Program-made: the position numbers and the translations under genes
The notes under the pieces: model-generated
Seen by the model: only the letters and a program-made list of their open reading frames with translations
Told to the model about the DNA's origin: nothing
Databases searched by the model: none
In this document: positions 2,186 through 9,624 of the stretch, piece by piece
Numbering within the stretch: position 1 is the stretch's first letter
Layout of the letters: each line of letters starts with the position of its first letter
Virus record (IMG/VR): IMGVR_UViG_2778261231_000012
DNA length: 30,030 nt
Source of the DNA: a virus
Taxonomy: Duplodnaviria; Heunggongvirae; Uroviricota; Caudoviricetes
Reading direction: 5' to 3' (one strand)

Positions 2186-2328
2186 CATTCGAATCCTACT
2201 TTGCTGATCATCTTCGTCTGCGATGGACTCGGTTACGCATCTATCGTCACCCGGGTTCATTTGCTACGGACTACCGAATTTTACGCAATTACATCAGCCG
2301 CTATAAACCATCAGGAGCAGAAGCATGA
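2182..2328 (+). CDS. small basic protein (48 aa), position-equivalent to DLP12 ylcG
   Basis: ATG overlaps the rusA stop (ATGA) and its stop overlaps the next gene's start (ATGA), i.e. translational coupling at both ends; translation [48 protein letters not shown]; below the ORF-track size cutoff. Confidence 0.5.
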
Positions 2329-3089
2329 ATCTCGAAAACACAGTGAAATACCACTTCGCGAAGTCAACGATGATTAGCGACGCTCCACGTGCAACCGCAT
2401 CTGACTCATTAACCGGCACTGACATTATGGCGGCGATCGGAATGACACAGAGCCGGGCTGATCTCGGGTTCAGTGCATTCCTCGGTAAGATGGATATCAG
2501 CGATTACGATCGCGAGCGAGCAATTGACCTGCTGACCAAATATGCAATTGAGCACTGCGATAAGGTTGCCGCCTTACGCAAGCTTGAGAGCGATGTTAAG
2601 CCAAAGGTAATGCAAGTTCTCGCAACTTTCGCCTTTGCTGATTACTCCCGGAGCGCCGCCAGTACCAGAACGTGCGACTGCTGCAATGGAAATAAGTTTG
2701 TCGAAGCTGAAGTAATGACGATGAAGCATATCGGACAGCCACACCTTAGCGAAAAAAGAGAGATGGTTAAGGTGCTTTGCCACAAATGCAAAGGGAAGGG
2801 TGCTCTGACCAACGCATGCCAGTGCAATGGCAAAGGAACAGTATTAGACAAAGAGAAAACTATTCTACAGCGCGGCGTTCCTGCATATAAAACCTGTACG
2901 CGCTGCAATGGGCGTGGTTATGCCAGATTGCTACCTGATAGCGTCCGTAAATACATCTGCGTAACGGTGATGGATATACCTGAAACCACGTGGCGCAGGT
3001 CTTACAAGGATTTTTTCGAAAGTCTGGTAGGTGAGTGCATCAAGCAGGAAGAGTACGCAAACCAGATGTTGAACAAAGTCACGCGATAG
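2325..3089 (+). CDS. putative late-gene antiterminator (Q-like) with DnaJ-type CxxCxGxG zinc-finger repeats
   Basis: 254-aa ORF with AGGAG SD; four Cys motifs CDCCNGNK, CHKCKGKG, CQCNGKG, CTRCNGRG; sits between the nin/rusA block and a promoter/terminator pair preceding the lysis cassette, the canonical Q position. Confidence 0.45.
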   Translation: MNLENTVKYHFAKSTMISDAPRATASDSLTGTDIMAAIGMTQSRADLGFSAFLGKMDISDYDRERAIDLLTKYAIEHCDKVAALRKLESDVKPKVMQVLATFAFADYSRSAASTRTCDCCNGNKFVEAEVMTMKHIGQPHLSEKREMVKVLCHKCKGKGALTNACQCNGKGTVLDKEKTILQRGVPAYKTCTRCNGRGYARLLPDSVRKYICVTVMDIPETTWRRSYKDFFESLVGECIKQEEYANQMLNKVTR

Positions 3090-3131
3090 TGAATGTTTTC
3101 TATGAAATAGGATTTATCTAGAAAACTACAC

Positions 3132-3160
3132 TTTACAAAGTGGCGATTTTTGTTTAATCT
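3132..3160 (+). promoter_or_regulatory. sigma70-type promoter candidate in the pR' position (late promoter)
   Basis: TTTACA (3132-3137), 17-bp spacer, TAATCT (3155-3160), about 45 bp after the Q-like stop. Confidence 0.35.
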
Positions 3161-3194
3161 GAAATCAATGATGGAGTAGTGCATTCATTCGATG

Positions 3195-3224
3195 GCCCTG
3201 AGTTAATAGCTCGGGGCTTTTTTG
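3195..3224 (+). terminator. intrinsic terminator (tR'-like) about 30-55 nt downstream of the predicted late transcription start
   Basis: 8-bp stem gccctgag/ctcggggc (one G-U), 7-nt loop, then TTTTTTG. Confidence 0.6.
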
Positions 3225-3240
3225 TATCTGCACAACAGAT

Positions 3241-3478
3241 AATTGCATTGGGGTGACCGGTTAATCCCGTTACGCTAACCGAAACAGGCGCAGTGCAATT
3301 ATCGTTGTGGTGAATGCGCAGGCTGATGCGCTAACTTATCAGCTAGATGGTGAGGTAAAGGCTCACCATGGCGACGACGGGTAGTTCATTTACATGCCGG
3401 AAAACACAGCACCGGTCACCACACACCAAATACCTACCAGGACCATAAGAGCAAAAGCTCAACGCACTACCCTCTATT
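3241..3478 (+). ncRNA. candidate structured non-coding RNA region between Q and the holin
   Basis: No ORF longer than a few codons on the + strand; hairpins at 3316-3331 and 3347-3369; 10-nt long-range complement 3252-3261 (ggtgaccggt) / 3411-3420 (accggtcacc); ends at a strong intrinsic terminator. Confidence 0.25.
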
Positions 3479-3505
3479 GCCCACCGCGCCGTGGGCTTTT
3501 TTATT
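3479..3505 (+). terminator. intrinsic terminator immediately upstream of the lysis cassette
   Basis: gcccac-cgcgcc-gtgggc hairpin followed by TTTTTTATT. Confidence 0.65.
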
Positions 3506-3609
3506 GCAGGCCGCAGATATCATTTTCAGATGCCATGTAGCAATCAGAGTCTGACGGCCTTTCCCCTACAAACACACACAGCGCCATCCGAAAAATCGGA
3601 GGTGAGGCT

Positions 3610-3888
3610 ATGACCAGAATGAGCACTATTTACAGCAGACTTTCATATGGAACAGGAACCACGCTGACCGGCTGCGGTGTATCAGCGAAGGCATATGCCG
3701 AAACAGCTAAAACAGCAAAAGAGGTGTCCTGGATGTTGGCCGACAGAATTGCAGGGTTAAGCCTGAGCGACTGGGCAATTATTGTCGGTATCGCATGCAC
3801 GGTAATCACCTGTGCAGTGAACTGGTATTTCCGCTGGAAAGAACGGGAGGATCGGCGCAATGGCTATGTCTCTAAAGCTGAAGAATAA
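3610..3888 (+). CDS. holin, S21-like pinholin class with dual-start motif (MTRM)
   Basis: 92 aa; GGAGG SD; Met1/Met4 separated by Arg (holin/antiholin dual start); weakly hydrophobic Gly/Ala/Thr-rich first TMD, second TMD WAIIVGIACTVITCAVNWYF, charged C-terminus REDRR as in recalled phage 21 S. Confidence 0.8.
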   Translation: MTRMSTIYSRLSYGTGTTLTGCGVSAKAYAETAKTAKEVSWMLADRIAGLSLSDWAIIVGIACTVITCAVNWYFRWKEREDRRNGYVSKAEE

Positions 3889-4408
3889 ATTGAGCGCAGC
3901 GGTCGTTGGTTTGATTCTTGCCGGGGCTTCCGCACCCGTGATTCTCGATCAGTTTCTGGATGAGAAAGAGGGTAACAGCTTGACAGCATATCGCGACGGC
4001 GGCGGACTCTGGACCATTTGCCGTGGTGCAACAATGGTTGATGGCAAGCCAGTAGTACAGGGCATGAAGCTGTCAGCTGAGAAATGCGCCCAGGTAAACG
4101 CCATTGAACGCGACAAGGCGCTGGCGTGGGTTGACCGAAATATCAAAGTACCACTGACCGAACCACAGAAAGCGGGTATCGCTTCTTTCTGCCCATATAA
4201 CATCGGCCCCGGAAAATGTTTCCCGTCTACGTTCTATAAGCGAATTAATGCTGGCGATACGAAAGGAGCCTGTGAAGCTATCCGCTGGTGGATTAAAGAC
4301 GGTGGCCGCGATTGCCGCCTGACCAAGGGCCAGAAGGATGGATGTTATGGGCAGGTAGAACGGCGGGACCAGGAAAGCGCACTGACGTGCTGGGGGATAG
4401 ACCAGTGA
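3860..4408 (+). CDS. SAR endolysin (T4-lysozyme-like, GH24) with N-terminal signal-anchor-release domain
   Basis: N-terminal Gly/Ala-rich TMD LSAAVVGLILAGASAPVIL; catalytic spacing E-x8-D-x5-T in EGNSLTAYRDGGGLWT; overlaps holin 3' end; start may be 3860 or 3866. Confidence 0.85.
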   Translation: MAMSLKLKNKLSAAVVGLILAGASAPVILDQFLDEKEGNSLTAYRDGGGLWTICRGATMVDGKPVVQGMKLSAEKCAQVNAIERDKALAWVDRNIKVPLTEPQKAGIASFCPYNIGPGKCFPSTFYKRINAGDTKGACEAIRWWIKDGGRDCRLTKGQKDGCYGQVERRDQESALTCWGIDQ

Positions 4409-7181: not shown

Positions 7182-7727
7182 ATGGAGGTTAACAAAAAAC
7201 GCTTATCCGAAATTTTCGGGGTAAGCGTCCGAACGATTCAGAACTGGCAGGAGCAAGGTATGCCGGTTGTCCGCGGTGGTGGCAAAGGTAATGAGGTTCT
7301 CTTTGAATCTGCTGCTGCAATCGAATGGTACAGTGCGCGCGATGCAGCTATAGAAAATGAAAAGTTGCGGAAGGAAGTTGAAGATCTCCGTATCGCTTCT
7401 GAGTCCGATCTTCAACCTGGCACGATTGAATATGAGCGACACCGACTTACGCGAGCTCAGGCTGACGCTCAGGAATTAAAAAATGCAAAAGAGTCCGCTG
7501 AAGTGGTGGAGACCGCATTCTGCACGTTCGTGCTGTCGCGGGTAGCCGGAGAAATCGCCAGCATTCTCGATGGAATACCTCTGTCGGTTCAGCGGCGCTT
7601 CCCGGAGCTGGAGAACCGACATATTGATTTCCTCAAGAAGGACATCATTAAGGCCATGAACAAGGCAGCTGCGCTGGATGAAATGATACCGGGGTTGCTG
7701 AGTGAATATATCGAACAGTCAGGTTAA
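7182..7727 (+). CDS. nu1: terminase small subunit Nu1
   Basis: Close match over its full length to recalled lambda Nu1 (MEVNKK...IRTIQNWQEQGMPV.RGGGKGNEV...[10 protein letters not shown]). Confidence 0.95.
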   Translation: MEVNKKRLSEIFGVSVRTIQNWQEQGMPVVRGGGKGNEVLFESAAAIEWYSARDAAIENEKLRKEVEDLRIASESDLQPGTIEYERHRLTRAQADAQELKNAKESAEVVETAFCTFVLSRVAGEIASILDGIPLSVQRRFPELENRHIDFLKKDIIKAMNKAAALDEMIPGLLSEYIEQSG

Positions 7728-9624
7728 GGGGCTGCAGCACTCTGCGCGGGCGGGGTTACGTTCGCTGTACCGGCCGCAACCGCAAACAGCAGTTGAATGG
7801 GCAGATGAGAATTATTATCTCCCGAAAGAGTCTGCCTACCAGGAAGGGCGCTGGGAAACACTGCCATTTCAGCGTGCAATTATGAATGCGATGGGTAATG
7901 ACTATATTCGCGAGGTGAATGTCGTTAAATCGGCTCGTGTCGGCTACTCAAAAATGTTGCTCGGCGTTTACGCATATTTCATCCAACATAAACAGCGTAA
8001 CTCCCTAATATGGTTACCAACCGACGGTGATGCTGAAAACTTCATGAAGTCTCATGTAGAACCGACCATTCGTGATATTCCGACGTTGCTGGCGCTTGCT
8101 CCCTGGTACGGTAAAAAACACCGGGACAATACGCTGAGCATGAAGCGTTTCTCGAATGGTCGTGGTTTCTGGTGCCTGGGCGGTAAGGCTGCAAAAAACT
8201 ACCGTGAAAAATCAGTTGATGTGGCTGGCTACGACGAGCTCGCCGCTTTCGATGATGACATCGAGAAAGAAGGTTCTCCCACCTTTCTGGGTGATAAGCG
8301 TATTGAGGGTTCTGTATGGCCGAAATCCATTCGCGGATCTACACCGAAAGTCAAAGGTACGTGCCAGATAGAAAGAGCTGCTAAGGAGTCTGAACATTTT
8401 CTTCGGTTCCATGTTCCATGCCCACACTGTGGGGAAGAGCAGTATCTGAAATTCGGTGATAAAGAGACACCATTTGGCTTCAAATGGTCTCCGGGAGAAC
8501 CTGCCAGCGTTTACTACCTCTGTGAACACAATGCCTGTGTGATTAAACAACAGGAGCTGGAATTTCTGGAGGCCAGGTATATTTGTGATGAAACAGGTAT
8601 CTGGACACGAGACGGCCTTAACTGGTTTTCTTCATCCGGTACCGAAATTGAACCTCCTGACAGCGTTACATTCCACATCTGGACCGCATATAGCCCGTTC
8701 ACAACCTGGGTGCAGATCGTCAAGGACTGGATAAAAACAAAAGGTGATACGGGTAAGCGAAAAACTTTCGTTAACACGACCCTGGGCGAAACGTGGGAAC
8801 CGAAAATAGGTGAACGACCCGATGCTGAAGTTTTAGCGGAACGAAAAGAGCACTTTGAAGCGTCTGTGCCGGAGCGAGTGGCATATCTGACAGCGGGTAT
8901 TGACTCCCAGCTTGACCGTTACGAAATGCGTGTTTGGGGATGGGGGCCGGGAGAGGAAAGCTGGCTTATCGACAAAATTATCATTATGGGTCGTCATGAT
9001 GATGAGTCGACTCTCGCTCGAGTTGATGAAGCGATCAACAGGACGTATAAGCGCCAGAACGGTCTCGAAATGGTTATATCCCGCACTTGCTGGGATATTG
9101 GCGGCATTGATCCCACCATCGTCTACAACCGCTCAAAAAAACACGGTCTGTTTCGTGTGATCCCTATAAAGGGGGCGTCGGTTTATGGAAAGCCAGTGGC
9201 GAACATGCCACGCAAGCGTAACAAGAATGGTGTTTACCTCACAGAGGTAGGAACAGACACCGCAAAAGAGCAGATTTATAACCGTTTCACGCTGGTGGCG
9301 CAAAGAGACGAGCCGCTGGCGGGAGCGGTTCATTTCCCGAATAACCCAGAAATCTACGATCTAACAGAGGCCCAACAACTAACAGCTGAAGAGCAGGTGG
9401 AAAAATGGGTAGACGGAAAGAAAAAGATCGTCTGGGACAGCAAAAAACGACGAAATGAGGCGCTCGATTGCTTTGTTTATGCACTGGCGGCGCTGCGTAT
9501 AAGCATATCCCGCTGGCAGCTAAATCTTGATTCACTTCTGGCCAGCCTGCTGGAGGAAGAAGGCAGCCGTAACAATAACAAGACCCTGGCGGATTACGCG
9601 CGGGCATTATCTGGAGATGAATAA
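7702..9624 (+). CDS. A: terminase large subunit gpA
   Basis: 640 aa; close match to recalled lambda gpA (MNISNSQV...[33 protein letters not shown]...); overlaps Nu1 3' end as in lambda. Confidence 0.95.

Follow-up and report, generated by a model that had tools for sequence, protein, structure and literature searches.

A predicted late-gene regulatory cassette of the Q-lambda family, with its own pairing of Q protein and promoter spacer, in the right arm of a lambdoid prophage

The DNA analysed here, which we call the window, is a stretch of 30,030 nucleotides from a virus of the Caudoviricetes (IMG/VR record IMGVR_UViG_2778261231_000012), and it constitutes the right-hand arm of a lambdoid prophage. 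An antiterminator gene of the Q-lambda family is preceded by NinB, YbcO, RusA and a YlcG-like ORF and followed by a holin gene and a lysozyme gene, with an Rz-like ORF on the + strand among the late genes beyond the lysozyme gene. The Q and holin genes are separated by a gap of 520 bp, and the promoter and terminator that are the subject of this report both lie in this gap. The genes and features referred to below are listed here, with coordinates given as positions in the window:

2325-3089, + strand: Q antiterminator gene, 254 aa, Q-lambda family (Pfam PF03589, E 1.6e-43)
3132-3137, + strand: -35 hexamer TTTACA of the putative late promoter (pR' equivalent), 5/6 against TTGACA
3138-3154, + strand: 17-bp spacer AAGTGGCGATTTTTGTT, putative Q-binding element (QBE), proposed from its conservation and its match with the Q type
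3155-3160, + strand: putative -10 hexamer TAATCT, 3/6 against TATAAT, with A2 and T6 present
3167, + strand: predicted transcription start (+1), an A, 7 nt after the -10 and corresponding by homology to the initial A of lambda AACGAT
3167-3175, + strand: putative sigma-dependent pause element AATGAT (+1 to +6) with discriminator-like GGA (+7 to +9), aligned to lambda AACGAT-GGG
3182-3183, + strand: predicted promoter-proximal pause at +16/+17 (C, A), by analogy with lambda
3194-3223, + strand: intrinsic terminator (tR' equivalent) from the terminator scan, stem 3194-3204/3208-3218, loop 3205-3207, T6 3218-3223
3225-3309, + strand: lambda-type tR' flank TATCTGCACAACAG, which leads into the late leader's long clamp hairpin (3231-3309), from flank identity and folding
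3479-3502, + strand: second intrinsic terminator, in the late leader, from the terminator scan, about 110 nt before the holin gene
3610-3888, + strand: holin gene (Pfam PF16080/PF04971)
3860-4408, + strand: SAR-type lysozyme gene (Pfam PF00959)
7182-9624, + strand: terminase genes, small and large subunits (gene list)

Coding, tRNA and Rfam explanations for this region were set aside because the corresponding searches came back empty. No Pfam match at E <= 1 was obtained for the minus-strand ORF at 3002-3184 or for the small ORFs at 3394-3540 and 3491-3613, the tRNA/tmRNA scan found none in the late leader of the window, a region where relatives have tRNA genes, and an Rfam scan of positions 2900-3900 at permissive thresholds gave nothing above the gathering score that covers the leader. 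A match to the Rfam family NsiR1 (19.7 bits, E 0.37) was dismissed as only a generic resemblance between terminators.

The product of the Q gene also matches the Q-lambda chain of PDB 7UBM (E 3.6e-48), and it is 36% identical to lambda Q, 45% to phi80 Q and 83% to the Q protein of Salmonella phage SI8. Its N-terminal 60 residues are well conserved in comparison with lambda Q, whereas the zinc-ribbon arm contains a CXXC-rich insert of 47 aa (residues ~115-165) that is missing in lambda Q. In the lambda structure this arm reads positions 11-13 of the QBE and touches sigma region 4. Because the 47-aa insert has no counterpart in lambda Q, details of QBE recognition may differ from those of the solved lambda complex. 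A weak match to the DnaJ central domain, under the Pfam cut-off, was also seen, and phi80 Q possesses a still longer insert at the same place in the arm.

The first-pass annotation had described TTTACA and TAATCT, 17 bp apart and about 45 bp after a Q-like gene, as a near-consensus promoter. The two hexamers are indeed present at this spacing, and the measured distance from the end of the Q stop codon at 3089 to the -35 is 42 nt, but the term near-consensus is too generous: the promoter matches the consensus at 8 of 12 positions (-35, 5/6; -10, 3/6), is absent from the promoter scan list of the tool (threshold 9/12, with at least 4/6 for each hexamer) and has to be seen against 133 matches of at least 8/12 in the 30-kb window (50 on the + strand and 83 on the - strand; our own scan). 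On its own, the hexamer match is no better than chance, and it was not used as statistical evidence because of these 133 equal-or-better matches. Within the 520 bp that separate Q from the holin gene, TTTACA-17-TAATCT is the sole + strand match of at least 8/12. Two other choices of the -10 were considered and rejected. One of them, TTTAAT (3153-3158), would require a 15-bp spacer and a 9-nt discriminator, while the other, TTAATC with an upstream TG (extended -10), is without the essential A at position 2; TAATCT was preferred to both because it reproduces the geometry of lambda exactly.

Promoter activity is instead suggested by homology. TTTACA aligns opposite TTGACT of lambda and HK542, and TAATCT is aligned with lambda TAAATT, at a position where relatives have TAATAT or TAACCT. 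The arrangement corresponds to that of lambda, with a Q gene of the PF03589 family directly upstream, a -35, a spacer of 17 bp, a -10, 6 nt and an A at +1, a -10-like element from +1 to +6 and then GG, an intrinsic terminator, the TATCTGCACAACAG flank and a clamp hairpin, and with the lysis genes next. The two regions compare as follows:

lambda: -35 TTGACT, spacer 17 bp, -10 TAAATT, next 6 nt TGACTC, from +1 AACGATGGG
window: -35 TTTACA, spacer 17 bp, -10 TAATCT, next 6 nt GAAATC, from +1 AATGATGGA

In addition to the divergence of the Q proteins, the window differs from lambda in having an unrelated spacer (AAGTGGCGATTTTTGTT, against TATTGAATAAAATTGGG in lambda), a weaker -10 (3/6, against 4/6 in lambda) and a much shorter predicted leader (about 57 nt, against the 194 nt of the lambda 6S RNA).

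From the homology to +1 of lambda pR' we infer that transcription starts at A3167, which agrees with the start named in the first-pass annotation. This position is also the first base of a putative pause element. In lambda, AACGAT (+1 to +6) is a -10-like element that is re-bound by sigma region 2, GGG at +7 to +9 is a discriminator-like element, and polymerase pauses at +16/+17 (PMC5001585); the role of the pause element in the Q cassette is also treated in PMC9388147. The window has AATGAT at exactly the lambda distance from the -10, and this hexamer (4/6 against TATAAT, with A2 and T6 present) is nearer to TATAAT than is AACGAT of lambda. The combination AAYGAT-GG(A/G) is found in lambda, in most of the divergent cassettes described below and in two of the three leader types found behind this promoter in relatives (A, to which the window belongs, and B), while variant hexamers are present in the third type, C (AACAGT-AG), and in phi80 (AACGCT-GGG). 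Further downstream, the sequence context of the predicted pause comprises G at +7, C at +16 and A at +17, and the C at +16 is conserved within a TGCA that is invariant among type A leaders. The consensus for elemental pausing has G where the window has A at +17; hence both the strength and the position of the pause, which would be expected by analogy with lambda, are uncertain.

An intrinsic terminator whose U-tract ends about 55 nt after the start had also been proposed, in good agreement with what we find. The stem reported by the terminator scan has 11 pairs, of which 6 are G-C, and a 3-nt loop; the T-run is followed by G at 3224 and ends at +57 counted from A3167, and the predicted leader RNA is accordingly about 56-59 nt long. 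Ranked against the hairpins in the window that precede a T-run, it comes first on the + strand and second when both strands are considered, and the 60-nt leader folds more stably than shuffled sequences (z = -3.1; centroid -17.3 kcal/mol). Moreover, the hairpin GCCCTGAGTTAATAGCTCGGGGC and its T-run are identical to those of HK542, and variants of the stem keep their pairing in type A relatives (CTGAG/CTCGG, CTGCGG/CCGTGG, CCGGG/CCTGG and CTGGGG/CCTTGG). Across 31 distinct type A leaders, 97.6% of the cells in the terminator stem are standard pairs, and this proportion drops to 23-48% in a control in which the 3' partners were slid by one to three columns. Behind the T-run follows TATCTGCACAACAG…GCATTG, as behind lambda tR', with 14 consecutive bases identical to lambda and about 40 nt largely conserved. 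The hairpin therefore occupies the position orthologous to tR'.

The exact region also occurs in E. coli, for example in 21AR0133, ET729 and KCJ3K291. The conservation of the locus was examined in 80 viral contigs that encode the Q type of the window (72-100% protein identity). For the core comparison we used the 78 contigs that reach past Q, together with SI8, giving 79 loci. A 29-bp core, TTTACAAAGTGGCGATTTTTGTTTAATCT, is present in all 79 with at most 2 substitutions. When the 49 distinct versions are compared column by column, the -35 is 100% conserved, with the spacer at 96% and the -10 at 95%; the flanks and the 3' end of the Q gene reach 67-75%. A simple scan found a terminator behind the core promoter in 78 of the 79 loci. 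The leaders that connect the two are of three unrelated kinds, all of which begin right after the -10. Type A, the HK97-like leader of the window, has the end of its T-run at about +55-58 (33 loci, including the window); the end lies at about +70 in type C (22 loci) and between +110 and +200 in type B, which resembles the lambda 6S leader (25 loci). This conservation and the homology show that the pair of promoter and terminator is not a mere product of chance.

These data also bear on the possibility that the 3194-3223 hairpin mainly ends the early-right (Q) operon, with inactive hexamers and late transcription arising from elsewhere or from early read-through. The terminator lies about 105 nt past the Q stop codon, which is a normal position for the end of an operon, and the promoter matches merely 8 of 12 consensus positions. 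However, the + strand offers no better sigma-70 match anywhere from Q to the holin gene, conservation of the hexamers and spacer is far above that of their flanks, unlike what inert sequence would show, the pause element keeps precisely the spacing to the -10 that is found in lambda, and the homologous positions are annotated as PR' in the records of HK542 and phi80. We consider this explanation very improbable.

A converse test was made by searching with a pattern for the type A leader and then typing the Q gene upstream, which gave 96 loci. Type A leaders were found behind three different types of spacer, and each of these goes together with one type of Q. The spacer motif TTGAATAAA is preceded by lambda Q (90-100% identical) in 47/47 loci, GTGGCGA by the Q type of the window in 44/44 loci, and CCCGAA by a third Q, about 51% identical to that of the window, in 5/5 loci. 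Co-variation of this kind between spacer and Q is what one would predict for a spacer that acts as the Q-binding element, combined with an interchangeable module of leader and terminator. Physical linkage could partly contribute to the co-variation, because the promoter is only 42 nt away from the Q gene, but a functional role is indicated by where the modules join, immediately behind the -10, and by the strong purifying selection acting on the spacer. The comparisons show that the promoter with its putative QBE and the leader with its terminator are separately exchangeable modules, joined right after the -10.

The phages HK97, HK542 and mEpX1 share with the window the leader AAYGATGGA....TGCA.TC.TT and, behind it, the identical terminator GCCCTGAGTTAATAGCTCGGGGCTTTTT, whereas their Q is of the lambda type (90-100% identical to lambda Q) and so is their spacer. 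Their leaders differ from that of the window at about 8 positions, including a switch from C3:G21 to U3:A21. In the GenBank record of HK542, "PR'" and "Qut" are annotated at exactly the positions equivalent to those in the window; the records of the three phages have the promoter and Qut annotated, but not the terminator. The closest Q protein that has been studied experimentally is that of phi80 (gp17; 45% identity), which has an enlarged arm too. The phi80 record annotates a -35, a gp17-binding site in the spacer just past the -35, a -10 and terminators. Like the window, phi80 has its pause element (AACGCT-GGG) 7 nt after the -10, a short leader (74 nt) ending in a related terminator, and a second terminator before the holin gene, while its spacer (TTCGCGGAAAAACTGGA), leader sequence and hexamers (TTGCAT and TAGATT) are different. 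The same layout is shared by divergent cassettes of the Q-lambda family in many genera of the Enterobacterales, with Enterobacter, Citrobacter, Yersinia, Providencia, Morganella and Tatumella among the genera represented, and most of their leaders end at about +53 to +78. Short leaders of 53-78 nt are hence the rule in this family, and the 194 nt of lambda are the outlier.

In our interpretation, 3132-3223 is a cassette of the Q-lambda family that regulates the late genes of a lambdoid prophage, and we assign this reading a probability of about 0.85. A cassette of this kind is defined by a Q gene, pR', the QBE and the sigma-dependent pause element (SDPE), together with a terminator and the late genes (PMC9388147). 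A qut-like arrangement with a terminated leader, and with it the start of the late operon, had been put forward by the first-pass annotation together with the Q-like gene. The arrangement is supported by the alignment to lambda pR' and to PR'/Qut of HK542, and the late-operon start by the lysis and terminase genes that lie downstream on the same strand, whereas the assignment of the Q gene is confirmed by the profile and structure matches given above. The late-operon start of the prophage can thereby be placed at this cassette.

From what is established for the family, we infer how start, pausing, Q binding and read-through would proceed, following the cassette mechanism in PMC9388147 and PMC5001585. 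RNA polymerase with sigma-70 would start constitutively at about A3167 from TTTACA-17-TAATCT, and sigma region 2 would then re-bind AATGAT(GGA) at +1 to +9 and give rise to a scrunched pause at about +16/+17. Without Q, the polymerase would escape and stop at 3194-3223, and the leader RNA thereby released, about 57 nt long, would be equivalent to the lambda 6S RNA. Once the 254-aa Q has accumulated, it would bind the spacer AAGTGGCGATTTTTGTT and load onto the paused complex, where, by analogy with Q-lambda, it would form a nozzle on the RNA-exit channel. The Q-loaded polymerase would pass the terminators at 3194-3223 and 3479-3502 and transcribe the holin, lysozyme, terminase and head genes. 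The QBE of lambda is likewise located between the -35 and the -10. It is a 13-bp asymmetric site that is read by a Q monomer (PMC9388147). Our literature search found no experimental study of the Q/QBE type of the window, that is, of a 254-aa Q combined with the spacer AAGTGGCGATTTTTGTT. This specificity type is the sole new element of the cassette; everything else is textbook and leaves the textbook picture unchanged. It provides a natural test set for the way in which DNA is read by an enlarged zinc-ribbon arm.

The leader RNA itself might have a further role, which could coexist with the Q switch. In Shiga-toxin phages, the small RNA StxS is processed from the pR'-tR' leader (PMC7547250), and the leader of about 57 nt could similarly be a trans-acting regulatory sRNA in the lysogen, with the terminator hairpin and its U-tail serving as the Hfq module. 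StxS provides the precedent of a constitutive pR' leader, terminated at tR', that is an Hfq-dependent sRNA, and its authors propose pR' leaders as a general source of sRNAs (PMC7547250). As in the StxS system, the late promoter of the window would be constitutive and terminated shortly downstream in lysogeny, resulting in a short stable RNA. The window leader is moreover compact, with a stem at its 5' end joined by a short linker to a strong terminator, which with its U6 is compatible with Hfq binding; type A is a portable module behind three Q types, and pairing of the 5' end recurs in many of the divergent leaders. The two systems differ in that the distance from pR' to tR' is 258 nt for StxS, whose RNA is processed to 74 nt, and in that Hfq binding and targets have been demonstrated for StxS (PMC7547250). 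Against an sRNA function in the window, variability within the type A leader is highest in the single-stranded regions that could act as seeds (loop nt 8-15 and linker nt 24-28), no Rfam family reaches threshold for the leader, the window itself has a weak 5' stem (-3.0 kcal/mol, z +0.4), and the leader RNA has no known target. The core promoter is also joined equally often to the unrelated leaders of types B and C, and for this reason no particular leader RNA sequence is required. We therefore regard an sRNA function as unlikely. In Shiga-toxin phages the Q protein belongs to a different family.

The 5' pairing was looked at separately. RNAalifold predicts a stem at the 5' end of the leader RNA, in which nt 1-7 pair with nt 16-23 (3167-3189, + strand). 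The pause element, as transcribed into RNA, is part of this stem. Pair 3:21 is C:G in leaders of the lambda/HK97 type and U:A in those of the window type (11 and 20 distinct sequences, respectively). Of 20 divergent leaders, 15 have most of their first 8 nt in pairs formed inside the first 30 nt (mean z -1.3), and these pairings use other sequences, such as AACGG/CCGTT, AATGG/CCAT and AACA/TGTT. A hairpin at the 5' end, built from different sequences, thus recurs in most leaders of the Q-lambda family, and it might serve to protect the 5' end. We did not retain the stem as a firm feature of the window, as the switch at 3:21 may represent a single event and the fold has about -3 kcal/mol with z +0.4. 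That a hairpin between the 5' end and nt about 16-28 is under selection, and that it stabilises the leader or late mRNA or enables a stable StxS-like sRNA of about 57 nt, seems doubtful to us.

Beyond the terminator, the late leader contains several elements with counterparts in other phages. A clamp hairpin (CACAACAGATAATTGCATTG … CAGTGCAATTATCGTTGTG; 3231-3309, + strand) follows directly after tR'. Compensatory changes preserve its basal stem of 17-19 bp in lambda and 17 further distinct versions (for instance GGTAAGAGCA/TGCTCTTTCC and GGTAAGAATA/TATTCTTACC), while the apical insert is wholly variable, sometimes with sequence similar to a tRNA T-arm, and the overall length ranges from 68 to 102 nt. 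A region of the lambda late RNA that is processed by RNase III has been reported (Daniels et al. 1988, as cited in PMC7547250), and the clamp hairpin probably corresponds to this processing hairpin in the lambda late leader. Further downstream, the part of the late leader around 3479-3502 is homologous to P22-like phages. The stretch that matches in the record of phage L covers locus positions 901-1000, and a terminator annotated there at 892-932 overlaps its upstream end. In the equivalent leader of phage L, tRNA-Asn and tRNA-Leu are flanked by two annotated terminators, and in some E. coli prophages a tRNA-Asn adjoins the same holin gene.

Two minor observations were made in the course of these comparisons. 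The searches with the Q protein also recovered 207-aa lambda Q genes on short contigs labelled Oceanobacillus, Bradyrhizobium, Segatella, Kitasatospora and others, all with the same 35-36% identity to the query as lambda Q itself (loci L241-L259 and L272). The occurrence of lambda Q on contigs of such unrelated organisms is most simply explained by contamination of the assemblies with lambda DNA. The second concerns a 47-nt segment of the late leader (3335-3381, + strand) that matches positions 237-283 of the 16S rRNA model with 31 bits (E 3.6e-7), under the gathering score. It is part of a wider match (3304-3423), in which 118 bp are about 91% identical to sequence in the unrelated Escherichia phage ZCEC13 and Klebsiella phages SBP and SCNJ1-Y. 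In SBP, the one record examined, the matching sequence is situated inside a 560-bp gap between baseplate genes, and it has the appearance of a small RNA-like segment that is mobile or recombined.
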